The notes below the pieces were generated by a model. That model did no database searches. It saw nothing but the letters and a program-made list of their open reading frames with translations, and was not told where the DNA came from. Position numbers and translations under genes: made by a program. Shown one piece after another: positions 792-63,748 of a DNA stretch of 64,000 nt (the stretch's first letter is position 1; every line of letters begins with the position of its first letter). Origin of the DNA: Nannocystis bainbridge (lineage in GTDB: Bacteria > Myxococcota_A > Polyangia > Nannocystales > Nannocystaceae); contig NZ_JAQNDL010000001.1 in assembly GCF_028368995.1 (NCBI RefSeq), positions 2,688,001-2,752,000 of the forward strand. The letters are read 5' to 3'.

Positions 792-2384
792 ATGCAGCGC
801 AGGCGGCTCATCGAGGGCGTCGGGAGCTTTCTCTGCGGCGTCGTGCTCTCGGCGGCGGTGTACGAGACCGGCTTGCGCCAGCCCGTCGTCGGACCCGCGG
901 CCCCCGCGGGCGACGCCGATCCGCCCGCCGACCTCGCCCCGCCCGCGGCCGACCCCGAGGCGCCGGCGATCTCTCCGGAAGACGCCCCGGCCGACGCGCC
1001 CGCGATCGCCGCGGACACGCCCGCCACGCCTGGCGATCCCTACACCCCGGACGCCAACGGCAGCTTCACCGCCTACCCGCCGATCCACGTCCCGCTGCCC
1101 GAGTGGACCCCCGAGCTCGCGGCCAAATATCCCAAGCACGGCCTCGTCACCGGCCTCGCCGCCGTCGTGCGCGAGCGGACCGAGCGCGACGCCCCGATCC
1201 TCGGCATCCTGCGCGCCGGCACCCGCGTGCGCACCGACGCCGAGCTGAGCTTCGGCGGCGGCTGCACCAAGGGCTGGCACAAGGTCTACCCCGGCGGGTG
1301 GATCTGCCTCAACGCCGGGCTCGAGGTCGGCGACCAGCCGCCCGACGACGGCACCGTCGCCACCCCGCGCCCGCGCCTCGACGCCGCCATGCCCTACGAG
1401 TACTGGCGCGTCTCGCACGACGGCACCCCGTTCTTCCACCGCCTGCCCGGCTTCAGCGAGCAGGACCAGGCTGACATGGCCGCCAAGACATGGCTCTCGG
1501 AACATGGCCGATCGCTCATGCCGACCGCGACCGCCGACCGTCCGCCCGAGGTCCCGGCGGTGGTCAAGGAGTACCTCAACGCCGGCTTCTACGTCACCGT
1601 CGCCGGCGAGGCCGTCAAGAGCGAGCGCAAGTTCCTCCGCACCCTGCGCGGCACCTTCGCCCGCAAGTACCAGCTCGAGCAGCGCGAGGGCTCGAACTTC
1701 CAGGGCGTGGTGCTGCGCGGCGAGGAGGACCTGCCGGTCCACTGGATCGTGCGCGAGACCCCGCTGCAGCGCCGCTCGGGCGAGGGCGAGGCGCTGATCA
1801 AGCTCGAGGACAAGAAGCCGGTCCGGCGCTCGCGCTACCCGTTCGTGCGCAAGGTGACGATCGGCACCACTCGCTTCTACGAGGACGCCGAGGGCAACCT
1901 GATGCCCGAGTATGCGATCGGCCAGTCGTACAAGCTGAAGCGCCCGCCCGGCGTCGGCCCCGAGGAGAAGTGGGTCCACGTCGACCTGTCCGAGCAGACC
2001 CTCGTGGCCTACGCCGGCGACCGCCCGGTGTTCACCACCATCATCTCGACCGGCAAAGAGCCCGGCATGACCCCGGTCGGCGTCCACCGCCTGCAGAGCA
2101 AGCACATCGCCACCTCGATGCGCGACCAGCCGGTCGAGGACGACGCTTACTCGATCGAGGACGTGCCGTGGACGCAGTACTTCCACAACAACGTCGCCCT
2201 CCACGGCGCCTTCTGGCACGGCGGCTTCGGCCTGGTGCGCAGCCACGGCTGCGTCAACCTGTCCCCGCCCGACGCCCGCTGGCTGTTCGGCTTCACCGAG
2301 CCGGCGCTGCCCGACGGCTGGCACTCGGTCACCCCCGCGACCGGCCCGTTCGGCAAGGGCTCGGCCGTGGTGGTCACCGAGTGA
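792..2384 (+). CDS. L,D-transpeptidase (YkuD family) with N-terminal membrane anchor and SH3-like segment
   Basis: C-terminal WVHVDLSEQTL...TPVG...ALHGAFWH..FGLVRSHGCVNLSPPDA (YkuD catalytic His/Cys motif); start taken at MQRRRLI (792). Confidence 0.9.
   Translation: MQRRRLIEGVGSFLCGVVLSAAVYETGLRQPVVGPAAPAGDADPPADLAPPAADPEAPAISPEDAPADAPAIAADTPATPGDPYTPDANGSFTAYPPIHVPLPEWTPELAAKYPKHGLVTGLAAVVRERTERDAPILGILRAGTRVRTDAELSFGGGCTKGWHKVYPGGWICLNAGLEVGDQPPDDGTVATPRPRLDAAMPYEYWRVSHDGTPFFHRLPGFSEQDQADMAAKTWLSEHGRSLMPTATADRPPEVPAVVKEYLNAGFYVTVAGEAVKSERKFLRTLRGTFARKYQLEQREGSNFQGVVLRGEEDLPVHWIVRETPLQRRSGEGEALIKLEDKKPVRRSRYPFVRKVTIGTTRFYEDAEGNLMPEYAIGQSYKLKRPPGVGPEEKWVHVDLSEQTLVAYAGDRPVFTTIISTGKEPGMTPVGVHRLQSKHIATSMRDQPVEDDAYSIEDVPWTQYFHNNVALHGAFWHGGFGLVRSHGCVNLSPPDARWLFGFTEPALPDGWHSVTPATGPFGKGSAVVVTE
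1461..1530. repeat. 14-bp-period array inside the L,D-transpeptidase CDS
   Basis: Nodes CAGG 1461, CATG 1475, 1489, 1503, 1517. Confidence 0.85.
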
Positions 2385-2812
2385 TCCGCGCGCGGGTCCA
2401 TGTTCGAGAGCGCGTTGCGACTCGAGCTGCAGCAGCGCGCGGCAGCCGGAGCCGGCGTCGCCGAATCGGTCGCGCGGATCTGCGAGAGCTGTGAAGAACA
2501 CGGCGAGGTCGCCGGCCGCTTCTTCGTCGTCCGCACCATGATCGCCGCGTTCGCGCTGCCTATGCGCCTCGCCCACGACATCGCCCCATGTCTCGAGGAC
2601 CGCGCCTCGTCCTGCGATTCGCTGGATGGCGAACTCGCACCGTACCTCCGCCCCTCTCGCTGAGTCCGATGTCGCCGTTCACCCGACCTCGTGCGCACGG
2701 ACGCGTGCGCACGGCGTTCACCTCGCTGCAGTCATGCGGCCTCGCGCGGACATGCGCGCGACGCTCGTGATACACATGGCGCCCACTTCCTGAAGCAGGA
2801 GACGCGAGTTCG

Positions 2813-3448
2813 ATGAAGGTCTACGGACACCCGATGAGTACGTGTACGCGCAAGGTCCTGATGACGCTGGCCGAGAAGGGCCACCGGGCCGAATTCGTCA
2901 TGGTCGACATCATGAAGGGCGAGGGACACGCCGCCGAGCACCTCGCGCGGCAGCCGTTCGGCCAGATCCCCGTGTTCGAGGACGACGACGGCTGGCAGCT
3001 CTACGAGTCGCGGGCCATCTGCCGCTACCTCGACGCCAAGCTCTCGGGCCCCTCCCTGATGCCCGCCGACCTGCGCCAGCGGGCCCAGGCCGAGCAGTGG
3101 ATCTCGATCGAGACCTCCAACTTCACCGGCCCGGCGATGAAGATCATCTACAACCTCGTGTTCGGCAAGTTCTTCGGCAAGGACCCCGACATGGCCGCCG
3201 TCGAGGAGGGTCGCAAGGGCGTGGCCAAGGCCGTCGCGGTCATGGATCGCCAGCTCGAGGGTCGCAACTTCATGGTCGGCGACGGCTTCACGCTCGCCGA
3301 CATCGGCTTCATGCCGTACATCGAGTACCTCGCCGCCGCCGGCGAGATCGGCCTCATCGACGCCAGCGAGCGCGTCGGTCACTGGTGGCGCCGGATCAGC
3401 GAGCGGCCCACCTGGCAGCAGGTCATCGGCCGCTCCAGCGCCGCGTGA
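2813..3448 (+). CDS. Glutathione S-transferase
   Basis: MKVYGHPMSTCTRKV, QPFGQIP, LYESRAICRYL, FTLADI motifs; 211 aa. Confidence 0.95.
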   Translation: MKVYGHPMSTCTRKVLMTLAEKGHRAEFVMVDIMKGEGHAAEHLARQPFGQIPVFEDDDGWQLYESRAICRYLDAKLSGPSLMPADLRQRAQAEQWISIETSNFTGPAMKIIYNLVFGKFFGKDPDMAAVEEGRKGVAKAVAVMDRQLEGRNFMVGDGFTLADIGFMPYIEYLAAAGEIGLIDASERVGHWWRRISERPTWQQVIGRSSAA

Positions 3449-3481
3449 TTCACCGGGCGCCTGACCTTTCAGCGCCCGCCA

Positions 3482-3526
3482 CGGCCGCGGCCGGACCTGT
3501 CCCTTCAGACATGTCCGCCGCGGCCG
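3482..3526. repeat. GC-rich hairpin centred on a TGTCC-N4-(G/A)GACA site; possible terminator or REP-like element
   Basis: Arms CGGCCGCGGCCGGAC / GTCCGCCGCGGCCG flank TGTCCCTTCAGACA; nodes CCTG 3496 and CATG 3510. Confidence 0.7.
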
Positions 3527-3563
3527 CGCTCGTTTCGCCCCCGTCGCTGCGGTCTCTTCGGAC

Positions 3564-4703
3564 ATGTCCCATCCACCATCCTCGCTCGTCCGACCTGTGC
3601 TCGCGGCCATCCTCGCCTGCGCCCCCGCCTGCGACCGCGCCCCCGAGCCCACGCCCGCGCCTCCGCCTCCGCCTCCGTCGCCGCCCGCGACCGCCGTGCA
3701 GCCGGTCGGCGTCTCCAATTTAAAAACCGACGAGGACCTGCGCCTCTTGCCCGCCCTCGCAGTGCGCGACGGCGACGGCTGGCGCGTCGACCTGCGCGTC
3801 TGGGTGTTCGAGCCCGAGGCTGACTCCTGGCGCCGCGGCGCCGCGGTCGAGGCCTTAGCGACCGCGCTCGAGCTCCCGCCCGGCAGCGCGGCGAGCGAGG
3901 TGTTCCGTAAGCGGGCCCGCACCTTCCTCGTCGACAACGAGAGCGGCAAGCGGGTCGTCGTCCAGATCGGCGGCAAGGTCCACCCCCTCGCCGTCACCGG
4001 CGCCAACGGCCACAGCGTCACCGAGCTGCGCCTCGCCGACGCCGACCTGCCCGCGCCCCTCAACGCCGTGACCGCCGTCCTGCAGCCCGGCGACGCTCGC
4101 AGCTTCGTCGGCACCATCGTCCGCCTCGACCCCGCCGGTATCTCGGTCGTCAGCGACGTCGACGACACCATCAAGCTCAGCGACGTGCGCGACAAGCAGC
4201 GCCTGCTCGAGCGGACCTTTTTAAAAGAGTTCGAGGCCGTGCCGGCGATGGCCGCGACCTATCAGCGCTGGGCCTCGGCCGGCGCCAGCTTCCACTACCT
4301 CTCCGCCAGCCCGTGGCAGCTCCACGACGCCCTGCGCGAGTTCACCGACGCCGCGGGTTTCCCGGCCGGCAGCGCGCACCTCAAGCTGTTCCGCGCCAAG
4401 GACGCGAGCTTCTTCGCCCTGTTTCAGGACCCGCAGGCCTACAAGGCCCCGCTGCTGCGCCAGCTCCTCACCGGCGCGCCGGGCCGGCGCTTCGTGCTCG
4501 TCGGCGACTCGGGCGAGCTCGACCCCGAGGTCTACGGCGCCGCCTACCGTGAGTTCCCCGACCAGGTCGTCGCCATCTACATCCGTGACGTCACCGACGA
4601 GGCCCGCGAGGCCCCGCGCTATCGCACGGCCTTCGAGGGCGTCCCTGCGGCGCGCTGGCAGATCTTCGACGACCCCGCGGAGCTGCCGCCGACCTTGCCC
4701 TGA
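3564..4703 (+). CDS. App1-family phosphatidate phosphatase (DUF2183-like), probable lipoprotein
   Basis: VVSDVDDTIK (HAD DxDDT), FHYLSASPWQL, FVLVGDSGELDPEVY, AIYIRDV. Confidence 0.85.
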   Translation: MSHPPSSLVRPVLAAILACAPACDRAPEPTPAPPPPPPSPPATAVQPVGVSNLKTDEDLRLLPALAVRDGDGWRVDLRVWVFEPEADSWRRGAAVEALATALELPPGSAASEVFRKRARTFLVDNESGKRVVVQIGGKVHPLAVTGANGHSVTELRLADADLPAPLNAVTAVLQPGDARSFVGTIVRLDPAGISVVSDVDDTIKLSDVRDKQRLLERTFLKEFEAVPAMAATYQRWASAGASFHYLSASPWQLHDALREFTDAAGFPAGSAHLKLFRAKDASFFALFQDPQAYKAPLLRQLLTGAPGRRFVLVGDSGELDPEVYGAAYREFPDQVVAIYIRDVTDEAREAPRYRTAFEGVPAARWQIFDDPAELPPTLP

Positions 4704-4772: not shown

Positions 4773-7697
4773 ATGTTCAGCCGTCTCCTGAGCTCCGCCA
4801 GTCTCGTTGTGATTCTTGCTCTCGGCGCCGCCGGCGAGGCTCAGGCCCGCCGCGTCGAGCCGGGCGCCTGGCAGCCCGCTCCGGGGGTCGGGATGCGCCT
4901 GCAGCGAGCCGTCGACCTCGGGGGTGCCCCGCCACGCGTCGCTGCGGCTGCCTGGCGCCGCCTCGCCGCCGAGCTCGGCCCGACCGCCCAGGCCATCTGG
5001 GACGCCGACACCCACGTCCCCACGCGCGTGTGGGGCGCAGGTCTGCCGGCCGCCGGCGCCGTCACCTCGAGCCTGGTCGCCCGCCGGATCGCCGACGAGT
5101 TCCTCGCCACCCACCTCGACCTGCTCGCCCCTGGCGCCCGGCCGGCCGATCTCGCGCTGATCGGCGACGACCTCTCGGCCGGCATTCGCAGCCTCGGCTT
5201 CGCCCAGACCTACCACGGCCGCCGCGTCGTCGGCGGTCAGCTCAGCCTCCGCTTCAAGGGCGACCGCCTGACCCTGATCGCCAGCGAGGCCCTGCCGCAC
5301 GTGCGAGCTGTCCTTTCGGACAGCCCGATCGCCGACGAGCAGGCCCGCGCCCGCGCCCTCGACTGGCTGCGCGGCGAGTACCCGGCCGCCACCGCCGGCG
5401 CCGTCTCGACCCCCGTCATCCTCCCGCTCGTCGGCCACGGCCCGATCCGCTACCTCGAGGCGCGCGCCGTCGAAGTCGCCTCCGACCAGCCGCTCGGCGG
5501 CTGGACCGTCTACGTCGACGCCGCCACCGGAACCCCGCTGGCCCGCGTCTCGAAGTTCATCTCCGCCACCGGCACCGTCCTCTACGACGTCCCCGAGCGC
5601 AGCCCGAGCTACGGCGAGCGGGTCCTGCGGCCGGCGCCCTTCCTCGACATCACCATCGACGACGTGCCCGCCGTCACCGACGCCGCCGGGACTGTCACGT
5701 TCGACGCCGCCACCGTGCAGGTCGGCCTCGGCGTGCGCGGCCAGTTCGTCCGCATCATCAACAAGGCCGGCGCGCTGGCCAGCCAGGTGTTCGCGCTCGA
5801 CGAGGGCAGCGAGGTCCAGTGGAGCGGCGACGGCGACCCGCACCTCGACGCCCAGCTCACCGCCTACGTCGCCGGCAACTTCGCCAAGGACTACGTGCGG
5901 GCGATCGCCAGCGAGCCGCTCGCCTGGCTCGACGGCCAGGTCGACGTCACCGTCAGCGACAACAGCGGCGCCTGCAACGCGATGTCGAACGGCGACGACC
6001 TGTTCTTCTTCGACGGCAACGAGAACTGCGAGAACACCGCGCGGATCCCCGACGTCGTCTATCACGAGGCCGGTCACAGCGTGCACAACCAGTCGCTGAT
6101 CCCCGGCGTCGGCCTGTTCGAGGGCGCCCTGTCCGAGGGCATCTCCGACTACCTCAGCGCCACCATCACCGGCGACCCGGCGATGGCCCGCGGCTTCTTC
6201 CTCAACAGCCAGCCGCTGCGCGACCTCGACCCCGACGGTTACGAGTGGCACTGGCCCGAGCACCGCGGCGAGTCGCACGACGAGGGCCGCATCATCGGCG
6301 GCACGCTGTGGGACCTGCGGACCGAGCTCATCGCCGAGATGGGCGAGGCCGAGGGCATCGCCCACGCCGACAAGATCTGGTACGAGGCGACCCGCCGCGC
6401 CAGCGACATCCCGACCATGTACCCCGAGGCGCTGCTGGTCGACGACGACGACGGCGACCTCGCCAACGGCACCCCGCACAGCTGTCTCATCGACCAGGTG
6501 TTCTATCGCCACGGCCTGGTCGGCGCCGCCATCCTCGGCGGCGAGGTCCGCACGCTCGCGGCCGAGGCCGACGGCAGCGTCCCGGTCGCGCTCGACATCC
6601 AGGCCGCGCAGAGCTCGTGCATCGACCTCTCGCCGACCGGCGCGAAGCTCGAGTGGCGCGTGCGCGGCACCCCGACGATCACCGAGATCGCGATGACGAG
6701 CACGCCCGAGGGCTTCGCCGGCGCCCTGCCGCCGCAGCAGGACGGCACGGTGATCGAGTACCGCGTGACCGCCGACCTCAGCAACGACACCGAGGCCCAG
6801 TTCCCGGCCAACCCGGCCTATCCGTGGTACCAGCGCTACTACGGCGAGGTCGTGCCGATCTGGTGCGAGGGCTTCGAGGGCGACGTGGCGAGCTGGACGC
6901 TCGGCAGCGAGTGGGAGATCGGTGCACCGCTCGGCAAGTCGGGCGACGCCGATGCCGCGTTCGCCGGCGACAAGGTCGCGGGCATCGACCTCTCGAGCGA
7001 CGGCCGCTACTCGCCGCAGCGGGTCATGAACCTGACCGGCCCGATCGTCGAGCTGCCGCCGGGCTTCGCCTCCTACCGCCTGCAATACCAGCGCTGGCTC
7101 AACGTCGAGGACGCCTACTTCGACCGCGCCGAGATCCTCGTCAACGGCGAGCTCGGGTGGCGCAACTTCAACAGCATGATGGGCGACAACAACAGCGACG
7201 TGCATCATCGCGACAGCGAGTGGAGCTTCCACGACGTCGACATCACCCCGGTCGCGTTCTCCGGCACCGCCCAGCTGGTGTTCCGCCTGTCGTCCGACGG
7301 CGGCCTCGAGCTCGGCGGCTGGAACCTCGACGACGTGTGCATCGTCGGCGTCGAGGAGCCGCCGCCGGCGGTCTGCGGCGACGGGGTGATCGCCGCGGGT
7401 GAGGGATGTGACGACGGGAATTCCGAGGACGGTGACGGATGCAGCGCCACGTGCACCGTCGAATCGCCGGAAGACCCCACCGAAGGGGCCCTGTCGACCA
7501 CCGGCAGCGCCGATCCGGACTCCGACACCGGCACCTCCGACGATTCGGACAGCACCGGCGGCGCGAGCGAAATGGGCGGTTGTGGTTGCCGTGGCGCGGG
7601 GGGCGCGGGTGGCTCCAGCGCATGGATGCTCGGCCTGGTCGGACTGGCCTGGCGGCGGCGGACGCGTCGCCGGCCGACGTCCGCGCTCCGCGCTTGA
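4773..7697 (+). CDS. Secreted gluzincin metallopeptidase (M36/M4-like) with propeptide, Myxococcus Cys-rich repeat and MYXO-CTERM tail
   Basis: VVYHEAGH, ALSEGISD, HDEGRIIGGTLWD; CGDGVIAAGEGCDDGNSEDGDGCSATC; GCGCRG-hydrophobic-RRRTRRR tail. Confidence 0.85.
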   Translation: MFSRLLSSASLVVILALGAAGEAQARRVEPGAWQPAPGVGMRLQRAVDLGGAPPRVAAAAWRRLAAELGPTAQAIWDADTHVPTRVWGAGLPAAGAVTSSLVARRIADEFLATHLDLLAPGARPADLALIGDDLSAGIRSLGFAQTYHGRRVVGGQLSLRFKGDRLTLIASEALPHVRAVLSDSPIADEQARARALDWLRGEYPAATAGAVSTPVILPLVGHGPIRYLEARAVEVASDQPLGGWTVYVDAATGTPLARVSKFISATGTVLYDVPERSPSYGERVLRPAPFLDITIDDVPAVTDAAGTVTFDAATVQVGLGVRGQFVRIINKAGALASQVFALDEGSEVQWSGDGDPHLDAQLTAYVAGNFAKDYVRAIASEPLAWLDGQVDVTVSDNSGACNAMSNGDDLFFFDGNENCENTARIPDVVYHEAGHSVHNQSLIPGVGLFEGALSEGISDYLSATITGDPAMARGFFLNSQPLRDLDPDGYEWHWPEHRGESHDEGRIIGGTLWDLRTELIAEMGEAEGIAHADKIWYEATRRASDIPTMYPEALLVDDDDGDLANGTPHSCLIDQVFYRHGLVGAAILGGEVRTLAAEADGSVPVALDIQAAQSSCIDLSPTGAKLEWRVRGTPTITEIAMTSTPEGFAGALPPQQDGTVIEYRVTADLSNDTEAQFPANPAYPWYQRYYGEVVPIWCEGFEGDVASWTLGSEWEIGAPLGKSGDADAAFAGDKVAGIDLSSDGRYSPQRVMNLTGPIVELPPGFASYRLQYQRWLNVEDAYFDRAEILVNGELGWRNFNSMMGDNNSDVHHRDSEWSFHDVDITPVAFSGTAQLVFRLSSDGGLELGGWNLDDVCIVGVEEPPPAVCGDGVIAAGEGCDDGNSEDGDGCSATCTVESPEDPTEGALSTTGSADPDSDTGTSDDSDSTGGASEMGGCGCRGAGGAGGSSAWMLGLVGLAWRRRTRRRPTSALRA
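5309..5322. repeat. Perfect single TGTCC-N4-GGACA site in CDS
   Basis: TGTCCTTTCGGACA. Confidence 0.7.
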
Positions 7698-12080: not shown

Positions 12081-12222
12081 CCCGCCCGCGCGTCCGCGCC
12101 CGCTCCTGGGGCCGACGAGCCTCGGAGCGGTCGCGGACGCGCGAGATGAATAAATTTTCATGTTCCCCTGGCATCGGCCGGATACCGCTGCCACGCTCAA
12201 CGGAGCAAAGGATCCCTTCGCC

Positions 12223-13206
12223 GTGCAGCGCTCCCTGCTCTCCGCCTTGACCCTGTCGTTCGGCCTCTGTGCCTGTGGCCCCGAGCTCAACCCGCCGCGG
12301 CCGCCCCCGGCCCACAGCGAGCTGGCCCCGGGCGGCGTCTGGGTCGCCTACAACCTCGGCTGCGAGGTCGGCTGCGAGGAGATCAAGCGCGGCGACCGGA
12401 TCCTCGCCGTCGACGGCCGCCCGGTCTCGAGCGGCGCGGAGCTCGACCAGATCAACCTGGCCCGCAGCGCCCCGCTCACCCTGCAGGTCGCCAAGTACGG
12501 CGGCAACGAGATCCGCGACGTCACGATCGTCGCCAAGCCCAACGAGCTGCTGCCGCCGATCGCCGCCGCCCCGCCGCTGTTCACCGTCGGCGCCGACGCC
12601 CTCGACCGCGCCCCCGAGTGGGCCCGCAGCAAGCTGTTCGGCCACGCGATCCCGGCGATCCGCTTCTACCGGGCCGACGAGCCGCGCGGCTACATCAGCG
12701 GCCGCGAGCTGTACGGCCGCGCCGCCCTGCTGGTGATCTGGGAGCTGCCCCAGTACATCGAGGAGTACCGCCGCTCGCTGGTCCTCGCCCCCTCCGTGTA
12801 CGCGCACATGCAGCAGTTCAGCGACGAGCTGGCCGCCGCCGGCGTCGACAGCTACTTCATCACCGACTTCCGCGCCGAGCCGGCCATCCGCGACATGCTG
12901 CGCAAGACCGCAGACCCCGGCCCCGACGGCTTCATCCCGATCTTCCAGCTGTCGTCGGCCCCGAACAACGGCTTCACGGTCGGCCTCGAGGGCCCCGCCG
13001 CCGACATCCGCGAGTCGATCTTCGACTACTCCCAAGCCCCGGTGGTCCTCATCTTCGACCGCCGCGGCATCGTCCGCTTCCACACCCGCGGCTTCCCGGC
13101 CGGCCCCGTCGACACCCTGTCCGTCGCCATCGACTTCGCCCTCCACTCCCTCACCGACGCCCCCACCCCCGCCGCGCTGGCCTCGATCCCGTCCGGCGCG
13201 CAGTGA
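12223..13206 (+). CDS. Lipoprotein with PDZ domain and C-terminal redoxin-like fold
   Basis: Lipobox GLCAC; IKRGDRILAVDGRPV (PDZ); GRAALLVIW...APVVLIFDRRGIVRF (TlpA-like, no CxxC). Confidence 0.65.
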   Translation: MQRSLLSALTLSFGLCACGPELNPPRPPPAHSELAPGGVWVAYNLGCEVGCEEIKRGDRILAVDGRPVSSGAELDQINLARSAPLTLQVAKYGGNEIRDVTIVAKPNELLPPIAAAPPLFTVGADALDRAPEWARSKLFGHAIPAIRFYRADEPRGYISGRELYGRAALLVIWELPQYIEEYRRSLVLAPSVYAHMQQFSDELAAAGVDSYFITDFRAEPAIRDMLRKTADPGPDGFIPIFQLSSAPNNGFTVGLEGPAADIRESIFDYSQAPVVLIFDRRGIVRFHTRGFPAGPVDTLSVAIDFALHSLTDAPTPAALASIPSGAQ

Positions 13207-13264
13207 AGGCGTCTCCTCGCGCCGGCCTCGGTCTCGTCCGGCGCGCAGTGAGGGTGTCCTCGAG
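13175..13264 (+). repeat. 45-bp imperfect tandem duplication of a gene 3' end including the stop codon
   Basis: GGCCTCGATCCCGTCCGGCGCGCAGTGA and GGCCTCGGTCTCGTCCGGCGCGCAGTGA; CAGTGA at 13201 and 13246. Confidence 0.8.
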
Positions 13265-13336
13265 AGCATGTCCGAGGGAACATGCCTGAGAGACCATGTC
13301 TTTCAGGACATGACGTATAGTACATACTCTCAAGCA
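13253..13336. repeat. Intergenic 14-bp-period array
   Basis: Nodes GGTG 13253, CATG 13267, 13281, 13295, 13309, CATA 13323. Confidence 0.9.
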
Positions 13337-16569: not shown

Positions 16570-16674
16570 GCATCCCACGTGACGCCAGCCGCGCGCGCAG
16601 GCATGCCCACGCGTGACGCCAGCGCCGCGCGCATGCATGCCCACGCGTGACGTCAGCCCTGCGCGCAGGCATGC
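16570..16674 (+). repeat. Tandem repeat of about 34 bp, 3 copies
   Basis: Units start at 16570, 16601 and 16635; core GCATGCCCACGCGTGACG(C/T)CAGC. Confidence 0.8.
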
Positions 16675-16683: not shown

Positions 16684-17127
16684 CTGCCCGACTTCGCCGC
16701 CCTGCTCCCGCCCGCCGAGGCCTCGCTGCTGGTGCTGCTGGTCGTCAGCTTCCTCGCGGCCACGCTCGTGCCGCTCGCCTCCGAGGTGTGGCTGCTCGCG
16801 CTCCTGGCGGCCCGGCCCGATCTATGGCCCGCGGCCCTCGCCGTCGCCACCCTCGGCAACACGGCCGGCAGCCTCACCACCTACGCGCTCGGTCGGCTCG
16901 GCCGTGTCGCAATCGACCCTGCCAGGCTCGCCTCGCGCCCGGCCCGGTGGCTGCAGCGCCGCGGCGCCCCGGTGCTCCTGCTCGCCTGGCTCCCGTTCGG
17001 CGGCGACGCCCTGTGCCTGGTCGCAGGCTGGCTCAAGCTGCCCGTCCTGCCCGCCCTGCTGTGGATCGCCCTCGGCAAGCTGGCCCGCTACGCCGCCCTC
17101 GTCTGGCTCTGTTTGACAGCGGCCTGA
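16684..17127 (+). CDS. YqaA/DedA (VTT domain) membrane protein; start uncertain
   Basis: SFLAATLVPLASE, ATLGNTAGSLTTYALGR, LLAWLPFGGDALCLVAGWLK, GKLARY. Confidence 0.85.
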   Translation: MPDFAALLPPAEASLLVLLVVSFLAATLVPLASEVWLLALLAARPDLWPAALAVATLGNTAGSLTTYALGRLGRVAIDPARLASRPARWLQRRGAPVLLLAWLPFGGDALCLVAGWLKLPVLPALLWIALGKLARYAALVWLCLTAA

Positions 17128-18278: not shown

Positions 18279-18387
18279 AGGTCTTGGGCTCCCGTGGTGG
18301 TTCGCGGAGAAGACGCGGCCGCCGCCGGCCGATGTTCCCGCCAGCCTACCAGGCATCATCCGCGCTCGCGCGGTACACTGGCGGCCG

Positions 18388-37460: not shown

Positions 37461-37468
37461 TCGCGGCG

Positions 37469-48482: not shown

Positions 48483-48486
48483 GTCG
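48438..48486. repeat. 14-bp-period array over the cytochrome start region
   Basis: GATG 48438, CATG 48452, 48466, 48480. Confidence 0.82.
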
Positions 48487-50066: not shown

Positions 50067-52301
50067 ATGACTCAACGATTTTCTCGCCGCCAATTCTTGC
50101 GTGCGACGCTCGTCAGCGTCGTCTCCGCCGGCCTGTCCGCCTGCAAGGGCGACGGCGACGGGGTCACCGACAGCGACGGCTCGACGGGCACGGACGGCAC
50201 CGAACCGACCGGCAGCACCGCGCCGACGACCGGCGCCGAGGAGCCGCTGCTCGACGGTGAGGCGTACTTTCCCCAGTCGGTGGCGTCCGGCGACCCGCGG
50301 CCCGACAGCGTGATCCTGTGGACCCGCATCGACGACGCTGCGGCGGGCGACGGTGATCTCGAGCTCACCGTGGAGGTGGCGACCGACCCCGAATTCACGG
50401 TGCGCGTCGACCTCGACGCGGCCAGCGCGGCGGTCCCGTCCCGCGCGATGTTCGACCGCTGCGCCAAGGCCAAGATCAAGGGCCTCGAGCCCGCGACCAC
50501 CTATTATTATAGATTCGTTCACAATCGCGAAGACGGCCGATACGCCAGCCAGGTCGGCAAAACCCGCACTGCGCCGGCTCCTGAGGCCGATGTCGCGGTC
50601 CGCTTCGCCTACGCGTCGTGCCAGGATTTCAACGGCCGCTATTATAATAGCTACCGCGGCCTGCTGGCCGAGCCGGATCTGGACTTCTTCGTTCACCTCG
50701 GTGACTACATCTACGAAACTACCGGCGACCCGACGTTCCAGGCGGCCGGCCGCGGGATCGCGTTCTCGGACACGGCCGGGGCGATCGTGTTCAACGAGGG
50801 CACCGAGACCGAGTACTTCGCGGCCAAGAGCCTCAGCAATTACCGCGAGCTGTACCGCGGCTATCGCTCCGACCCGGCGCTGCGGCGCGTGCACGAGAGC
50901 CTGGCGATGATCGCGGTGTGGGACGACCACGAGTTCAGCGACGACTGCTTCGGCGCGACCGCGACCTACTTCGACGGCCGCGTCGACGAGCACGACGAGG
51001 CCCGCCGCAAGCACGCCAACCAGGCGTGGTTCGAGTACATGCCGATCGACTTCGGCGACGACGAATTCGTGTACGACCCGAGCAAGCCGTACCCGCAGGA
51101 CATCAAGATCTACCGCGATTTCCGGTTCGGCAAGCACCTCCACCTGGTGATGACCGACCTCCGCAGCTATCGCCCCGACCACCTGATCCCCGAGGACGGG
51201 TTCCCCGGCGCAGTGGTGCTCGACGAGGCCGCGCTGGTCGAGCAATTCGGCTCGCTGCCCGAGTTCGCCGGGCCGTACGTCGACGACATCGACACCTACC
51301 AGGACGGCGTCTACAAGGACGCGCTGACCGCCGCCGCCGCCGCGCTCGGCTTCGACCCCGCGCTCGTCACCGGCAAGATCGACGCGAACTTCATCAACAA
51401 CACCCTGGCCGCGGTCGACGATGCGACCCCGCCGATCGACGAGGCCGAGCTGGCGACGCTGCCGCGCGGGCTGTCGTTCCTCGGCCTCGGCAAGCGCGGC
51501 ATCCACGGCTCGATCGGCGCCCGCTACTTCGTCGTCAAGCCGGCCTTCGACGCCTGGGCGGCGGCCCGCGCCAAGGCGGAGCCGGCCTCGGTCGACGTCA
51601 TGGGCGCGGCCCAGCGCGAGTGGTTCCTGCAGACCATGAAGGGCTCGACGGCGACGTGGAAGGTGTGGGGCACCGAGTACACGCTGATGCCGCTGGTGAT
51701 CGACCTGACGTCGTTCCCGATCGAGCCGTTCAACCAGCTCTACTACATCAACGTCGACCAGTGGGACGGCTTCAACCCGGCCCGCGACGCGCTGCTCGGC
51801 GAGCTGCAGGCGGTCGACAACGTGGTCGCCATCACCGGTGACATCCACGCCTTCTACGCCGGCACGCCGATGGTCGCCGGCGCGCCCGACGAGAAGATCG
51901 TCGAGCTGGTCGGCGCGGGCATCAGCTCGACGCCGTTCCAGTCGCTGCTGGTGCTGCAGGTCGCGGCCGACCCGACCCTCAGCAGCCTGCCGGGCGCCGG
52001 CATGCTGGCCGCGGCGATCGACGCCCTGTTCACCGGCACGACCACCAACCCGCACCTCGCCTTCGCCGACTCGAGCCGCAACGGCTTCGTCAGCGTGGTC
52101 GTCGACGGGGCCGGGTTCGACGCGACCTTCCACATGCTGAGCGAGAGCGAGTCGCTGATCGACTACGAGGGCATGGACGACGCCCTGGCCGGCAAGTTCA
52201 AGCGCGAGAAGTTCCAGGTCAAGCCCGGCGGGCGCGACCTCTACCGCGACTTCGCCGGCACCTACAAGCGCTGGGACCCGACCACCAACACGTGGGTCTG
52301 A
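50067..52301 (+). CDS. phoD: Alkaline phosphatase D, Tat-exported lipoprotein
   Basis: SRRQFLR Tat motif + LSAC; FPQSVASGDP, ILWTR, ASCQ, HLGDYIYE, WDDHE, DQWDGF, TGDIH. Confidence 0.92.
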   Translation: MTQRFSRRQFLRATLVSVVSAGLSACKGDGDGVTDSDGSTGTDGTEPTGSTAPTTGAEEPLLDGEAYFPQSVASGDPRPDSVILWTRIDDAAAGDGDLELTVEVATDPEFTVRVDLDAASAAVPSRAMFDRCAKAKIKGLEPATTYYYRFVHNREDGRYASQVGKTRTAPAPEADVAVRFAYASCQDFNGRYYNSYRGLLAEPDLDFFVHLGDYIYETTGDPTFQAAGRGIAFSDTAGAIVFNEGTETEYFAAKSLSNYRELYRGYRSDPALRRVHESLAMIAVWDDHEFSDDCFGATATYFDGRVDEHDEARRKHANQAWFEYMPIDFGDDEFVYDPSKPYPQDIKIYRDFRFGKHLHLVMTDLRSYRPDHLIPEDGFPGAVVLDEAALVEQFGSLPEFAGPYVDDIDTYQDGVYKDALTAAAAALGFDPALVTGKIDANFINNTLAAVDDATPPIDEAELATLPRGLSFLGLGKRGIHGSIGARYFVVKPAFDAWAAARAKAEPASVDVMGAAQREWFLQTMKGSTATWKVWGTEYTLMPLVIDLTSFPIEPFNQLYYINVDQWDGFNPARDALLGELQAVDNVVAITGDIHAFYAGTPMVAGAPDEKIVELVGAGISSTPFQSLLVLQVAADPTLSSLPGAGMLAAAIDALFTGTTTNPHLAFADSSRNGFVSVVVDGAGFDATFHMLSESESLIDYEGMDDALAGKFKREKFQVKPGGRDLYRDFAGTYKRWDPTTNTWV

Positions 52302-52342
52302 CCTTTCGGACATGGCCGATCGGGCATGTCCGAAGCGACACC
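52297..52342. repeat. 14-bp-period array immediately after the phoD stop
   Basis: TCTG 52297, CATG 52311, CATG 52325, CACC 52339. Confidence 0.75.
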
Positions 52343-52350: not shown

Positions 52351-52387
52351 AAAATAAAACGCGGCCACCGCCGATGCGGTGGCCGCG
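52351..52387 (-). terminator. Rho-independent terminator for the minus-strand lipoprotein gene
   Basis: CGCGGCCACCGC-CGAT-GCGGTGGCCGCG hairpin preceded by AAAATAAAA on + (U-tract on -). Confidence 0.8.
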
Positions 52388-54532: not shown

Positions 54533-57478
<2,946 letters not shown>

Positions 57479-59125: not shown

Positions 59126-60706
59126 ATGCCTGCACCGATCGTCGTCCCCGATCGCCTCAACATGGTCGAGTGGTTCCTCGACGCCCGCGTCGCCGAGGGC
59201 CTCGGCGACAAGACCGCGATCTACTGCGGCGACGCGCAGGTGACCTACCGCGAGCTGGTGGCCGCGTCGTGTCGCGTCACCAACCTGCTGCGCTCGCTCG
59301 GCCTGCGCATCGAGGATCGCGTGCAGCTGCTGCTGCTCGACACCCCGGAGTTCGCGGCCGCGTACTTCGGCGTGTTGCGGGCCGGCTGCGTGGCGGTGCC
59401 GACCAACACCTGGCTGCTGCCGGCCGACTACGCCTACTACCTCGAGTACGCGCGGCCGCGGGTGGTGATCGTCGACGCCGAGATCTACCCGCAGCTCGAG
59501 CCCGTGTGGCGCGAAGCGCCCTACCCGCCGATCGTGATCGTCGTCGACCGTGCCGGCGAACCTGTCCCGAAGGACACCCTCGACTGGCACGCCGAGCTGG
59601 CCCGCCAGCCCGACACCGCGCGCACCGAGCCGACCTATCGCGACGACTTCTCGACCTGGCTCTCGTCGTCGGGCTCGACCGGCAAGCCCAAGTGCGTCGT
59701 CCACATGCACCACGATTTCGTGTGGAACACCGTCGCCTACGCCCAGCGGACCCTCGGCATCACCCGCGACGACATCACGATCTCCGCGCCCAAGCTGTTC
59801 TTCGGCTACGCGCTGGCCAGCAACATGCTGTTCCCGTTCAGCGTCGGCGGCAGCTGCGTGATGGTGCCCGAGCGCGTCGCGCCCGAGCGCTGGTACGGCC
59901 TGATCGAGCGGTACCGCGCGACCCAGTTCGTGACCGTGCCGACGACGATCGCCAAGATGCTCGACCACCTCGACGAGGCCGGGCGGCGCGACCTGTCGTC
60001 GCTGCACTCGCTGGTCAGCGCCGGCGAGGCGCTGCCGTCGCGGCTGTACCGGCTGTGGAAGCAGTCGACCGGGGTCGAGATCTTCGACGGCATCGGCTCG
60101 GCCGAGATGTTCCACGTCTACATCACCAACCGCCCCGGCGACGTCAAGGACGGCAGCCTCGGCAAGCTCGTCGACGGCTACACCTACCGCCTGATCGACG
60201 ACGACGGGCGCGACGTGCCGCCCGGCGAGATCGGCACCCTCGTGATCACCGGGCCCTCGGCCGGCCAGGGCTACTGGCGCATGCGCGACCAGAGCCGCGC
60301 GACCTTCTGGGGCGACTCGGTCAAGGGCGCCGACAAGTTCCACGTCGACAGCGACGGCTACTTCTGGTTCTGCGGCCGCGGCGACGACATGCTCAAGTGC
60401 TCGGGCGTGTACGTCTCGCCGGTCGAGGTCGAGAACTGCCTCCTCGGCCACCCGGCCGTGCACGAGGCCGGGGTGGTCGGCTACCGCGACGCCGACGGGC
60501 TCGAGCGCGCGGTCGCCTACGTCGAGCTGGCCGCCGGGCACGCCGCCGGCGAGGCGCTGGCCGCCGAGATCCTGGCCCACGCCCGTGCCAACATCGCCGC
60601 CTTCAAGGCCCCGCGCCGGGTCGAGTTCATCGCCACCCTGCCGCGCACCGAGACCGGCAAGATCAAGCGCGGCGAGCTGCGCAAGCTGGCCGCCGCGCTC
60701 ACCTGA
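59126..60706 (+). CDS. Benzoate/4-hydroxybenzoate-CoA ligase family protein
   Basis: SSGSTGKPK, SAPKLFFGYAL, SAGEALP, DGIGSAEMFHVY, GRGDDMLK, PRTETGKIKR. Confidence 0.88.
   Translation: MPAPIVVPDRLNMVEWFLDARVAEGLGDKTAIYCGDAQVTYRELVAASCRVTNLLRSLGLRIEDRVQLLLLDTPEFAAAYFGVLRAGCVAVPTNTWLLPADYAYYLEYARPRVVIVDAEIYPQLEPVWREAPYPPIVIVVDRAGEPVPKDTLDWHAELARQPDTARTEPTYRDDFSTWLSSSGSTGKPKCVVHMHHDFVWNTVAYAQRTLGITRDDITISAPKLFFGYALASNMLFPFSVGGSCVMVPERVAPERWYGLIERYRATQFVTVPTTIAKMLDHLDEAGRRDLSSLHSLVSAGEALPSRLYRLWKQSTGVEIFDGIGSAEMFHVYITNRPGDVKDGSLGKLVDGYTYRLIDDDGRDVPPGEIGTLVITGPSAGQGYWRMRDQSRATFWGDSVKGADKFHVDSDGYFWFCGRGDDMLKCSGVYVSPVEVENCLLGHPAVHEAGVVGYRDADGLERAVAYVELAAGHAAGEALAAEILAHARANIAAFKAPRRVEFIATLPRTETGKIKRGELRKLAAALT
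59563..59576. repeat. Perfect single TGTCC-N4-GGACA site in CDS
   Basis: TGTCCCGAAGGACA. Confidence 0.7.
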
Positions 60707-60761
60707 ACCTTTCGACATGTCCTGAAGGACCTGGCCTGAGTACCATGACCGAAAAGACACC
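60702..60761. repeat. 14-bp-period array spanning stop codon, spacer and next start codon
   Basis: CCTG 60702, CATG 60716, CCTG 60730, CATG 60744, CACC 60758. Confidence 0.85.
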
Positions 60762-62538: not shown

Positions 62539-62716
62539 GCCCGCAAGTTGCGGGCCGCCCGCCGGGCTGTCGATTGCTGATTTCGTCGCTCGCCCCGGCG
62601 CCCGCGGGCCGGGCACTCGCGAATTTCCGCGACCGCCCGCCGTGGCCGCGTCGAAGAGCCAAGATGGGTTCTTGCGGCCGCTGCGAGCCGGGCGACGCAC
62701 GGGCGGCCTTTGTGTC

Positions 62717-62730
62717 TGTCCTCCGGGACA
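62717..62730. promoter_or_regulatory. Perfect TGTCC-N4-GGACA site in a divergent promoter region (identical copy at 63120-63133 in CDS)
   Basis: TGTCCTCCGGGACA at both positions. Confidence 0.65.
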
Positions 62731-62830
62731 GGTGTTCTCCGGCGCCGTCGCTTGTCGATATCCTTCAGCGGGCGACCGGGCGCGCGCGGCCGCTCGCTCG
62801 CGCCGGCTGCCGCGGTGTATCCTGGCCGCG

Positions 62831-63655
62831 ATGACGCGCCCTGCCCTGTCCTGCCTCGTCCTGCTGCTGGCCGCCTGCGACGGCGGCGCCGCCAAGCCCG
62901 CGGGCCCGCCGGCCGAGCCGGCCGAGAAGGTCGCGGTCGCCCCGCCGACCAGGGCCGAGCCGGAGGCGCCGCCGACCCCGAAGTACCCGCAGGGCGAGGC
63001 CGACGAGGCGTGCACGAAGATCGTGGTGGTCGCCTGGCAGGGGGCCGAGGACGCCGAAGCGACGATCACCCGCGACAAGGCGGCCGCGCAGGCGCGCGCC
63101 GGGGAGCTGCAGAAGAAGCTGTCCTCCGGGACAGCCTTCGCCGAGCTGGCCGCCGAGTCCGACGAGCCGAAGACGAAGGCCAAGGGCGGGGCGATGGGCA
63201 CCTACGCCAGGGACAATTGGCCGGACAAGTACGCGCCGCTCAAGGACGTGGTGTTCGCGCTCGGCATCGGCGAGACCTCGGCCGCGGTCGAGCACCCGCA
63301 CGGCTTCGTGGTCGCCCAGCGCTGCAAGGTCGAGAAGGTGCACACGCGGCACATCCTGGTCCGCTACGCCGGGGCGCGGAACGCCGAGGCGAAGCTCAAG
63401 CGCACCAAGGAGCAGGCGCAGAAGCTGGCGACGGAGATCCACGTCGCTGCCAGCGAGCCCGGGGCCGACTTCGAGGCGCTGGCCAAGAAGCGCAGCGAGG
63501 ACGGCTCGGCCGAGCGCGGCGGCGACCTCGGCGCGGTCGGCCGCGGCATGTTCGCCCCGGCCTACGAGGCCGCCGCGTTCGCGCTGAAGCCCGGCGAGCT
63601 CAGCGCGGTGGTCGAGAGCGACTTCGGCTTCCACGTGATCCAGCGGATCGAGTGA
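62831..63655 (+). CDS. Two-domain parvulin (PpiC-type) peptidyl-prolyl isomerase lipoprotein
   Basis: LAAC lipobox; FAELAAESDE..KGGAMG; RHILV, FEALAKKRSED.SAERGGDLG, FGFHVI. Confidence 0.92.
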   Translation: MTRPALSCLVLLLAACDGGAAKPAGPPAEPAEKVAVAPPTRAEPEAPPTPKYPQGEADEACTKIVVVAWQGAEDAEATITRDKAAAQARAGELQKKLSSGTAFAELAAESDEPKTKAKGGAMGTYARDNWPDKYAPLKDVVFALGIGETSAAVEHPHGFVVAQRCKVEKVHTRHILVRYAGARNAEAKLKRTKEQAQKLATEIHVAASEPGADFEALAKKRSEDGSAERGGDLGAVGRGMFAPAYEAAAFALKPGELSAVVESDFGFHVIQRIE

Positions 63656-63671
63656 CGGGCTGGGGCGGCAT

Positions 63672-63748
63672 GCTGTCCTGGACGACATGCCCTCGCGGGC
63701 ATGTCCTCTACAACATGCCCCCTCGGACATGTCACTCAGGACATGTGC
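63672..63748. repeat. Six-node 14-bp-period array between convergent genes
   Basis: GCTG 63672, CATG 63686, 63700, 63714, 63728, 63742. Confidence 0.93.

Follow-up and report, generated by a model that had tools for sequence, protein, structure and literature searches.

The question raised by this stretch of Nannocystis bainbridge DNA (the window, i.e., all 64,000 nucleotides analyzed) is whether the short palindromes recurring in it exactly 14 bp apart constitute a genuine lattice and, if so, what kind of element they form and what keeps them in phase.

Reality and extent of the lattice

The lattice is confirmed as real and far beyond chance. Within the window, 23 CATG–CATG pairs have a spacing of 14 bp versus 0.56 ± 0.72 expected from 100 dinucleotide-preserving shuffles, none of which attains 23, and spacings of 13 and 15 bp yield 1 and 0 pairs, respectively (0.60 and 0.42 expected). 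The distance peaks at 14, 28 and 42 bp that an earlier note had predicted are found, with counts of 23, 14 and 16, all remaining distances between 1 and 60 occurring 0–6 times each, and every 14-bp array listed in that note is present where it had been placed. The CATG-N10-CATG pairs start at 1475/1489/1503, 13267/13281/13295, 17229/17243/17257/17271, 22033, 38073, 38205, 40823, 46500, 48452/48466, 52311, 56405 and 63686/63700/63714/63728; further chain nodes lie at 46556 and at 60716/60744, in chains with degenerate (CCTG/CAGG) middle nodes. Seven of 23 CATG chains (e.g., 2733/2775, 9648/9690 and 61895/61937) were left uncounted as array evidence because, being joined solely via a 28- or 42-bp step between CATGs devoid of a unit, they look like chance. 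A position-weight-matrix scan of the window with a threshold of 8 bits gives 16 arrays, 9 intergenic and 7 coding according to a crude gene map. The individual features are as follows.

1472–1526: four units (CATG at 1475, 1489, 1503 and 1517) inside the open frame 3–2384 of a YkuD L,D-transpeptidase-domain protein (Pfam match); kept without indels in three congeners
3493–3569: two units (3493–3516) plus one exact decamer at 3560, co-directional intergenic
13264–13315: four units between the convergent gene ends 12160–13206 (+) and 13453–14628 (−)
17226–17294: five units between convergent gene ends, adjoining the stop of the ABC-ATPase gene 17298–18554 (−); folding −38.8 kcal/mol, z −4.8
20693–20716: two degenerate units inside the Ser/Thr kinase-AAA-GAF-histidine kinase gene 19885–25155
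22030–22053: two units inside the same kinase gene
23205–23256: four-unit span inside the same kinase gene; almost unchanged in four species
35984–36035: four-unit span within the 3′ portion of a coding frame on the minus strand
38070–38093: two units directly 3′ of the stop of gene 37457–38044 (+)
38202–38225: two units in an intergenic or 5′ region shared with the preceding array
40820–40843: two units between convergent gene ends; hairpin with a 13-bp stem that includes the outer spacers, −25.7 kcal/mol, z −5.8
46497–46576: six-unit span inside the coding frame 45936–47240 (+); kept without indels
48449–48486: three units between two minus-strand genes
52308–52331: two units beginning 7 bases past the stop (52299–52301) of gene 50097–52301 (+), this stop being in phase within a preceding degenerate unit; folding −22.2 kcal/mol
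56402–56425: two units in the FtsK gene (54533–57478, −), within its low-complexity linker
60713–60750: three units occupying the 38-base gap that separates an AMP-ligase gene, with its stop at 60706, from the following gene, whose predicted start codon is the ATG in the third unit (60745)
63683–63748: five units flanked by convergent genes, of which the minus-strand one has its stop (63732–63734) in phase inside a unit; folding −53.7 kcal/mol with z −4.8 (+) and −59.3 kcal/mol with z −5.8 (−)
5309–5322: isolated TGTCC-N4-GGACA junction palindrome (7 matches in the window versus 0.09 expected)
9428, 37666, 38207, 59563, 62717 and 63120: starts of the further TGTCC-N4-GGACA matches, those at 9428 and 38207 being additions to the five single sites already reported

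Beyond the window, the lattice is genome-wide. Its unit consists of the 10-base palindrome GGACATGTCC and a variable, A/T-enriched spacer of 4 bases. The 11-Mb genome contains 3,736 CATG pairs 14 bp apart, versus roughly 70–260 for neighboring spacings, with harmonics at 28, 42, 56 and 70 bp, and altogether 2,332 arrays of 2–11 units each; exact decamers number 956 (0–26 for control decamers), and unit pairs 3,882 at 14 bp versus 41 at 13 and 27 at 15 bp. All five contigs carry arrays (17–26 per 100 kb), a strain-specific segment of 48 kb having 2 where about 10 are expected. The earlier contention that spacing and half-sites are conserved, as opposed to a copied and pasted sequence, holds: 228 of the 256 possible spacer tetramers are used, the spacers of 20 exact doublets are almost all different and the flanks of array copies are mutually unrelated. 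Adjacent spacers resemble each other slightly more than random ones do (1.35 versus 1.11 identical bases), and the composition of unit and spacer is strand-symmetric even when oriented by transcription.

Placement and inheritance

The arrays sit mainly directly after protein-coding genes, the stop codon often being in phase in the first unit. On a gene map from a home-made codon-score caller, whose starts are imprecise, 1,781 of the 2,332 arrays are intergenic, 550 lie in called genes and one at a contig edge, so that the dispersal of palindromes inside genes invoked earlier is not the chief pattern. An array is found in 682/1,425 convergent (48%), 682/4,302 co-directional (16%) and 125/1,446 divergent (9%) intergenic regions; the densities per kb, from array counts, are 2.56, 0.83 and 0.27, respectively, and 0.06 in genes, making convergent intergenic DNA ~40-fold denser in arrays than genes. 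Divergent regions hold 141 arrays, and 338 of the ~550 genic ones have a strong coding signal on both flanks. Arrays lie a median of 40 bases from the stop upstream of them versus 183 from the start downstream; stop codons are often abutted or overlapped, with sharp offset peaks that place TGA at unit positions 6–8 or 1–3. Arrays in convergent gaps span 3.6 units on average, those in co-directional gaps 3.0, typical spans being four to five and two units, respectively. An array lies ≤100 bases downstream of only 4/102 tRNA genes versus 1,719/7,942 protein genes, i.e., arrays are about five times scarcer after the former. Twenty genes flanked on each side by an array have ordinary metabolic functions.

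Comparison with a congener covered 129 arrays in 474 kb, 77 of them with a recoverable orthologous region; the 53 intergenic regions among these contain an array in 32 cases, a single unit in 11 and nothing in 10. Orthologous identity is 0.73–0.81 for CATG, 0.60–0.68 for the remaining decamer and 0.37–0.48 for the spacers: between species, spacers are scrambled in sequence, while CATG stays at the core and the spacing at 4 bases. Genic arrays are likewise conserved across congeners, with cores better kept than spacers. The orthologous place of the 17226–17294 array holds an array in four congeners (the region being extractable in 4 of the 5 fetched), with differing unit numbers and spacers, and the 60713–60750 array is present in four named Nannocystis genomes; it is missing from Nannocystis MAGs of greater distance and from other genera, the two genes there directly adjoining or overlapping each other.

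Among the genomes searched, the element is confined to Nannocystaceae. It is hugely amplified in large-genome Nannocystis, whose copy number is about 50-fold apart from that of small-genome Nannocystis, and other Nannocystaceae genera, one of them with 60% GC, carry the GGACATGTCC unit in low copy number; triple-CATG matches number 107 in one other-genus genome versus 2–17 in the other six. Long arrays contain higher-order repeats of 14, 28 and 42 bp, the mark of slippage, and thus grow and shrink by one, two or three units; arrays in general presumably lengthen and shorten in the same way.

Hairpin pairing and strand sense

The unit equals its reverse complement, so that neighboring units can always pair, forming a 10–12-bp stem with the spacer as tetraloop, and longer arrays can adopt several overlapping hairpin registers. 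Neighboring units co-vary compensatorily at inner and outer stem positions with z up to 7.6 (e.g., C8:G3, 330 observed versus 233 expected; T9:A2, 168 versus 107). Same-position identity among units is hardly raised, so that subfamilies of arrays cannot account for this co-variation, and no positive within-unit symmetry co-variation was seen. In two-unit arrays the outer spacers are complementary (1.38 versus 1.07 paired bases, z 10), and spacers two apart tend toward complementarity. Of eight strand-folds computed on seven window arrays, seven have z between −2.6 and −5.8, that of 60700–60760 having z −0.27. The source of the unit co-variation could, however, be quasipalindrome template switching instead of selection.

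On the sense strand, G–T exceed C–A mismatches ~1.5-fold after factoring out replication skew, the ratio being just 1.05–1.07 in the spacers of the same arrays. Within convergent arrays, each gene-adjacent half favors G–T on the sense strand of that gene (left half 229/235 versus right half 163/290). This bias could derive in part from transcription-linked mutation. The loops have no strand preference (TTCG 40 versus CGAA 38) and the oriented spacers are reverse-complement symmetric in composition, a symmetry unlike that of RNA loops under selection.

As in intrinsic (Rho-independent) terminators, a stable GC-rich hairpin is found shortly past the stop codon; unlike these, a single stem sequence recurs at thousands of sites and no T-tract was found following the arrays. 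The two coexist, as with the hairpin-plus-T terminator at 52360–52387 adjoining the array at 52308, and the positive association of arrays with canonical terminators (13.3% versus 7.2%) indicates that the former do not simply replace the latter.

Possible nature of the arrays

The arrays look like an undescribed relative of repetitive extragenic palindromes (REPs), lacking the usual transposase; as the earlier note had supposed, no match to a described system emerged from our literature searches. The interpretation that we favor, albeit tentatively, is that the lattice consists of RAYT-less, REP-like hairpin arrays at mRNA 3′ ends which need a sequence-specific factor. REP hairpins near stop codons affect mRNA stability and translation; the Nannocystis arrays would similarly be transcribed as mRNA 3′ ends, where their hairpins may block 3′ exonucleases and read-through and, when no more than about 15 bases from the stop, may modulate ribosome release. 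A trans-acting factor reading unit sequence and geometry is implied by the persistence across genera of the CATG core and rigid 4-base spacing despite scrambled spacers. On the other hand, the effect sizes supporting this interpretation are modest, and a 3′-end role leaves ~550 genic and 141 divergent arrays unexplained. It is also weakened by the finding that the spacing stays 4 even where the spacer is the linker between hairpins; hairpins alone do not require this constancy, which counts against a reading based on hairpins only.

A live rival, possible though doubtful, is that the arrays are operators in duplex DNA, a dimeric Nannocystaceae protein binding each GGACATGTCC box cooperatively at 14 bp to form filaments that would organize the nucleoid, insulate or terminate transcription as a road-block, sited so as to spare promoters. 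The strong constraint on spacing, next to near-saturated spacer sequence, is the kind expected of a protein that reads neighboring units, and to this extent the operator proposal of the earlier note stands. The core kept across genera of differing GC content, the strand symmetry, the persistence within genes, where cores are better kept than spacers, and the presence on all five contigs also agree with it. The architecture resembles that of ribbon-helix-helix repressor operators (MetJ met-boxes, omega heptads), in which short head-to-tail boxes are repeated at an exact, non-integral-turn spacing and dimers on neighboring boxes contact each other; these operators, however, occur in few promoters, whereas the 2,332 arrays avoid the promoter-rich divergent gaps (125/1,446). 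CdbA, a ribbon-helix-helix nucleoid protein of Myxococcus xanthus, has >500 sites, genic as well as intergenic, with little effect on transcription; the motif, mostly within genes, is a direct repeat rich in GC whose copies are 4 bp apart (PMC7156744). The arrays, if operators, would be a comparable sequence-biased myxobacterial DNA-binding system, but consist of a CATG palindrome in tandem after genes. A pure duplex-operator model is nevertheless not supported, for it predicts neither the co-variation of units, the direction of the G–T/C–A bias nor the scarcity behind tRNA genes (4/102). Co-variation among neighboring units and among flanking spacers would be unexpected of independent dimer sites. 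Also against the model are the lack of positive within-unit symmetry co-variation, the switch of side of the sense-strand G–T preference within a single array and the dependence of array size on the number of gene ends facing the gap; no cognate protein was identified.

It is unlikely that the arrays have no host function and, driven by mutational or selfish processes such as minisatellite-type slippage, quasipalindrome template switching or uptake-signal-like recombination bias, accumulate where least harmful. The order of densities (convergent > co-directional > divergent > genic) is that predicted by harm avoidance, and the complementarity of spacers two apart that predicted by templated inverted copying; fresh 14-, 28- and 42-bp duplications, the slight likeness of neighboring spacers, the uneven copy numbers within and outside Nannocystis and the array-poor 48-kb segment point the same way. 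So do the unrelated flanks, as in the uptake sequences DUS (Neisseria) and USS (Pasteurellaceae), family-specific 10–12-mers with thousands of copies, often in inverted-repeat pairs giving hairpins after genes, tolerated in coding DNA and conserved in orthologous places. Family specificity, high copy number, hairpins after genes, genic tolerance and orthologous conservation are shared with the Nannocystis motif which, unlike DUS/USS, is palindromic and forms phased arrays in which as many as 11 units follow one another, always 4 bases apart; uptake signals are not known to occur in phased tandem arrays. Furthermore, a neutral core should decay like the spacers and indels should accumulate, yet CATG identity is far higher and spacer length is retained; harm avoidance alone does not account for the rarity behind tRNA genes, the doubly flanked genes are ordinary, and no mobilizing enzyme is evident (Y1 transposase in 0/6 genomes).

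Ordinary REP/REPIN elements mobilized by a RAYT transposase, suggested by the high-copy extragenic hairpin palindromes close to the 3′ ends of genes and by their vertical inheritance in orthologous places, are highly improbable and already contradicted by the lack of RAYT (Y1_Tnp, PF01797, found in 0/6 Nannocystis genomes, the same search being positive in 6/14 control genomes) and by loops and flanks not common to copies.

The family of RAYT-less hairpin arrays is best read as lineage-specific and functionally nearest to REP/BIME/REPIN of Enterobacteria and Pseudomonas, with which it shares hundreds to thousands of extragenic hairpin palindromes, lineage specificity, vertical inheritance and concentration behind gene 3′ ends and inside operons. 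It is differently built, the unrelated loops and flanks implying no copy-paste master sequence: REPs are 20–40 nt with variable linkers, whereas the Nannocystis unit is just 14 bp, itself palindromic and in strict 14-bp tandem phase, with several hundred conserved copies within genes.

The 14-bp register in the window and in the genome

The arrays found in this DNA are shown to be a family-restricted, massively amplified and vertically maintained repeat, with a sequence-specific core, a rigid register, co-variation between neighbours that can pair and a strong bias toward the 3' side of protein genes. Each unit consists of a 10-base palindrome, hereafter the decamer, and of a variable 4-base spacer, and at least two units in 14-bp phase make an array.

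In the window, the runs of CATG exactly 14 bp apart reported in the earlier note are present where it had placed them, and the excess that it attributed to this spacing is borne out: CATG-N10-CATG occurs 23 times vs 0.56 ± 0.72 in dinucleotide-preserving shuffles, and the off-register N9 and N11 controls occur once (0.60 expected) and not at all (0.42 expected), respectively. The spectrum of CATG–CATG distances has the predicted shape, with 23 pairs at 14 bp, 14 at 28 bp and 16 at 42 bp, as against 0–6 at any other distance up to 60 bp. The isolated copies of the junction palindrome TGTCC-N4-GGACA are likewise there (7 matches vs 0.09 expected) and the decamer, with at most one mismatch, is found 24 times (1.95 expected); the shuffles exclude chance or base composition as the source of the lattice.

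The host genome (11.05 Mb in 5 contigs, 71.5% GC) contains 39,940 CATG, which form 3,736 pairs at 14 bp, 2,073 at 28, 1,586 at 42, 751 at 56 and 383 at 70, vs 72 at 13 and 262 at 15. The logo built from 5,802 phased units reads GGACATGTCC, after which come four A/T-enriched positions under weak constraint (Y-W-W-R). The genome-wide matrix scan that had been proposed, carried out with a position-weight matrix at a cut-off of 8 bits, yielded 16,044 units, 6,665 of which are chained into 2,332 arrays, approximately one per 4.7 kb, spanning 2 (1,276 arrays), 3 (309), 4 (324), 5 (261), 6 (118), 7 (32) or 8–11 (12) units. The unit-to-unit distance is 14 bp in 3,882 pairs and 12, 13, 15 or 16 bp in only 18, 41, 27 and 12, respectively, while the exact decamer is present in 956 copies vs 0–26 for seven control decamers of like composition. 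The variability claimed for the four central bases is confirmed, the spacers occupying 228 of the 256 possible tetramers.

Array density is 17–26 per 100 kb on all five contigs. Some 100-kb bins of contig C1 (1.1–1.3 Mb and 0.5–0.6 Mb) have 0–3 arrays vs a mean of 22, and may correspond to giant synthase genes or recently acquired DNA; a strain-specific 48-kb segment has 2 arrays. An identical 7-unit array is found three times, at or near contig ends of the host genome (C2:839-926, C5:711216-711303 and C5:716603-716690), suggesting that the assembly broke at a long repeat.

Distribution and conservation in the Nannocystaceae

The nearest genomes retrieved by protein search as named records are those of Nannocystis punicea, N. 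exedens, N. pusilla and Nannocystis sp. RBIL2. Runs of three CATG in 14-bp register number 1,670 in the host genome, 1,005–1,162 in another five large Nannocystis genomes, 2–62 in five smaller genomes filed under Nannocystis, 0–17 in four other Nannocystaceae genera (one genome having 107) and 0–4 in the remaining genera; with the reversed control pattern the count is 0–2. No more than 4 hits, mostly plain tandem repeats, were found in any of 200 genomes sampled elsewhere in the phylum. The genome with 107 hits (G061, from another genus of the family) has six genus-mates with 2–17, and its surplus may represent an independent amplification. Examples from two other genera (73–76% and 59–62% GC) display the same (A/G)GACATGTC(C/T)-plus-4 unit in intergenic arrays of 3–5 units, several of which, in the 73–76% GC genus where frames could be called, lie between convergent stops. 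IMG/VR returned one contig with a single 2-unit element, which is uninformative, and four metagenome contig sets from soil, root and wetland gave pieces 90–99% alike, from related organisms and devoid of usable ends.

Vertical maintenance was followed over 474 kb of synteny with one congener, comprising 129 arrays, 77 of which have a recoverable orthologous region. Where this region is intergenic (53 cases) it contains an array in 32, a single unit in 11 and nothing in 10, the corresponding figures for the 24 genic regions being 20, 3 and 1. In the intergenic arrays identity amounts to 0.73–0.81 for CATG, 0.60–0.68 for the rest of the decamer and 0.37–0.48 for the spacers; in the genic arrays it is 0.81–0.94 for the decamer and 0.65–0.75 for the spacers, the flanking coding DNA being at 0.86. 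Of the 32 shared intergenic arrays, 17 are of unequal length in the two genomes (−3 to +2 units). Array length is thus altered by slippage, to judge from fresh 14-, 28- and 42-bp higher-order repeats in long arrays and from a slight resemblance between adjacent spacers. At the AMP-ligase junction (60706-60745) the array is present in the four named Nannocystis genomes, and in farther Nannocystis MAGs and in other genera the genes abut or overlap.

Placement with respect to genes and terminators

On a gene map made with a home-made codon log-odds caller (7,943 genes covering 83% of the genome, with imprecise starts), 803 arrays fall in convergent gaps, 837 in co-directional gaps, 141 in divergent gaps and 550 within called genes, 1,781 of the 2,332 arrays being intergenic. 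Arrays occupy 682 of 1,425 convergent, 682 of 4,302 co-directional and 125 of 1,446 divergent gaps; those in convergent gaps have on average 3.6 units (4 and 5 being common) and those in co-directional gaps 3.0 (mostly 2). In the latter, the array edge lies at a median distance of 40 bases from the stop codon of the gene before it and of 183 from the called start of the gene after it, and a unit lies within 100 bases downstream of 1,719 of 7,942 protein genes vs only 4 of 102 tRNA genes. Stop offsets display sharp peaks at −7 and +7 (22 and 123 genes), with TGA on unit positions 6–8, and at −2 and +12 (42 and 96 genes), with TGA on positions 1–3, so that the arrays extend up to the stop codon and in phase over it; each of the three stop codons is used proportionately. 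A role in start codons or leaderless mRNAs was rejected: of 335 cases, the ATG of the nearest unit shares the frame of the downstream gene in 131, vs the expected one third, and coincides with the called start in 45, a minor feature.

Nine of the 16 arrays of the window are intergenic and seven genic; features of these and of a neighbouring terminator are as follows:

13264, 17240, 40820, 52308 and 63683: arrays at convergent gene ends (five of the nine intergenic arrays)
FtsK linker, giant kinase gene and YkuD-protein frame: included among the genic arrays, from matrix scan and domain matches
52360-52387, minus strand: intrinsic terminator with a 12-bp GC stem and a 4-base loop, TTTTATTTT, kept in three congeners

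The giant kinase gene (19885-25155, plus strand) encodes a protein of 1,756 residues in which Ser/Thr kinase, AAA ATPase, GAF and histidine kinase domains are fused, and has three separate arrays in an inter-domain region. Other repeats were also noticed. The linker of the minus-strand FtsK gene contains, at 56729-56843, about 13 copies of a 9/15-bp CTC/CTT-rich repeat, 300 bases from the two-unit array 56402. A 36-bp tandem repeat (29283-29439, 4.4 copies, 88% match) within the coding frame 28177-31017 includes a TGTCC-N4-AGACA-like stretch similar to one array junction. Two repeats are, by eye, unlike the 14-bp unit: two copies of a 45-bp direct repeat (13173-13262) directly to the left of array 13264, and 2.9 copies of a 34-bp repeat (16578-16674) in the gap upstream of gene 16732-17127.

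An intrinsic terminator consists of a GC-rich hairpin with a T tract directly behind it; the arrays have the former but not the latter. In 837 oriented arrays, the frequency of T over the 40 bases that follow the final unit is 0.07–0.34, and the logo oriented by the upstream gene displays neither a T tract 3' of the arrays nor a unit direction. Oriented spacer words are as frequent as their reverse complements (TTCG 40 and CGAA 38, CTTC 47 and GAAG 41), and selection for UUCG or GNRA RNA tetraloops was discarded in view of this lack of strand bias in the loop words. Hairpin-plus-T terminators are found at only ~8.5% of the host genes and are commoner after genes with arrays (228 of 1,719) than after the others (448 of 6,223); since they are more, not less, frequent beside arrays, the possibility that the latter replace canonical terminators found no support. 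The textbook terminator at 52360-52387, which serves a minus-strand gene and lies 30 bases from array 52308, indicates that the organism uses canonical terminators.

Pairing of neighbouring units and kinship of the arrays

The decamer is identical to its reverse complement, so that two neighbouring units can form a hairpin whose stem is 10 bp long and whose loop is the spacer. In the 3,259 extragenic neighbour pairs, position k of one unit is complementary to position 11-k of the following unit more often than expected at each of the three variable positions (z of 2.6, 4.5 and 7.6 on the inner side and 4.4, 4.8 and 6.9 on the outer side), and non-consensus Watson-Crick pairs are enriched (C8:G3, 330 vs 233; T9:A2, 168 vs 107; T10:A1, 110 vs 61). 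Same-position identity of neighbouring units is barely increased (z −0.3 to 3.3) and array subtypes are therefore not the source of the co-variation. The outer spacers of 882 two-unit arrays have 1.38 complementary bases vs 1.07 (z 10) and spacers two apart in larger arrays 1.16–1.36; a long nested hairpin over the whole array was rejected, given that spacers four or six apart (1.00–1.18 vs 1.07) are not complementary. Eight strand-folds were computed for seven window arrays: seven are at −13 to −59 kcal/mol (z −2.6 to −5.8) and that of the 60700-60760 array, with z −0.27, is no different from shuffles.

The sense strand of co-directional gaps contains 1,253 G-T vs 886 C-A mismatches; when split by replication skew this ratio becomes 2.92 and 0.77, corresponding to a transcription-direction effect of ~1.5, compared with only 1.05–1.07 for the spacers of the same arrays. 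GC skew is strong in this genome (about ±0.05 to 0.10) and gene orientation is unbiased relative to it (3,120 plus vs 2,974 minus genes in negative-skew parts). The 322 convergent arrays of at least four units served as an internal strand control: counted on the plus strand, the pair adjoining the plus-strand gene has 229 G-T and 235 C-A and that adjoining the minus-strand gene 163 and 290, respectively (chi-square ~17, our own calculation). This side-dependent bias is compatible with pairing at the RNA level, which tolerates G-U, or with a mutation gradient linked to transcription and, under either reading, it fits a situation in which each array end is mostly transcribed from its own adjoining gene. 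Although statistically clear, both the co-variation and the mismatch asymmetries are of modest size, and mutational processes are an alternative source for them.

The REP/BIME/REPIN class is the closest known kind of element. Like REPs, the arrays are high-copy extragenic imperfect palindromes able to form hairpins (1,781 of the 2,332 being intergenic). REP/REPIN systems require a RAYT, i.e., a Y1 (IS200/IS605-type) transposase, whereas PF01797, the family of this enzyme, was found neither in the host nor in five congener Nannocystis genomes, the same search being positive in 6 of 14 well-known genomes. Furthermore, REP copies share a master sequence that includes the loop, unlike these arrays with their 228 spacer tetramers. 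A larger mobile element was rejected because the flanks of 193 solitary decamers are unrelated, save for a few local duplicates, and the 20 genes examined out of 21 tightly flanked by arrays encode ordinary enzymes and transporters and no transposase. We tentatively regard the arrays as a RAYT-less analogue of REP, which may quite possibly act as mRNA 3'-end hairpins.

Hairpins alone leave unexplained the conserved CATG, the fixed spacer length and the conserved genic copies, which point to a factor reading the units. These same features keep alive the model of the earlier note, namely a duplex operator bound cooperatively by a dimeric protein, which we nevertheless consider rather unlikely. 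The arrays share with the tandem boxes of MetJ and omega an exact spacing (3,882 pairs at 14 bp), but those operators lie in the promoters of a regulon, while divergent gaps are here the poorest intergenic class (125 of 1,446). Anti-symmetry within the unit (positions 3 and 8) was abandoned as an argument against dimer binding, simulation having shown it to be mostly a thresholding artefact. No cognate binding protein was identified, and CdbA was set aside since its published motif (PMC7156744) differs. The sites matS, SBS, NBS and parS, which number in the tens within one macrodomain or origin region, are set apart by number and spread from 2,332 arrays on five contigs. Compared by sequence traits alone, the arrays are DUS/USS-like in their 956 decamers vs 0–26 controls, unrelated flanks, and genic as well as terminator-like inverted pairs. 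Rfam 15 at gathering score gave no match on either strand of the 64-kb window. Among the literature matches listed, nothing concerned such repeats in bacteria, be it for the decamer, whose top-ranked matches are p53 response elements, or for palindromic repeats of Nannocystis or myxobacteria.

A mutational or selfish drive lacking a host function would account for array placement and slippage but fails to explain why core and register are kept while the spacers saturate, and appears improbable.

One could further imagine, with considerable doubt, that a Nannocystaceae factor reads phased GGACATGTCC units, whether displayed by duplex DNA or by stacked RNA hairpins whose tetraloop geometry is fixed, and assembles on them cooperatively; the arrays would then be, for roughly one gene in five, a sequence-coded, factor-dependent mark of transcript ends that serves as terminator, insulator and mRNA-end system. 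If true, this would define a new class of bacterial extragenic repeat, REP-like in abundance, having a rigid 14-bp register and neither RAYT nor copy-paste signature. The question posed is what, at thousands of loci, preserves the 10-base word and the length of the 4-base gap amid drift, be it a novel nucleic-acid-binding factor or a novel mutational drive, and it bears on how mRNA 3' ends are defined in very GC-rich bacteria, poor in canonical terminators. As to annotation, the arrays yield false ATG-started frames, stop and start codons being embedded in the units; they may also be used as Nannocystis typing markers and in expression engineering of natural-product producers.

An AT-rich site with three CATG 14 bp apart was dismissed as a clue to the arrays, since two homologues of the adjoining gene in the host genome are devoid of it. 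All 8 genomes of another Nannocystaceae genus have a single, conserved copy of it, located in the divergent promoter of the gene for a small winged-helix regulator (around position 3000 in sequences L147, L148 and L149); it is probably the operator of that regulator itself, unrelated to the arrays.
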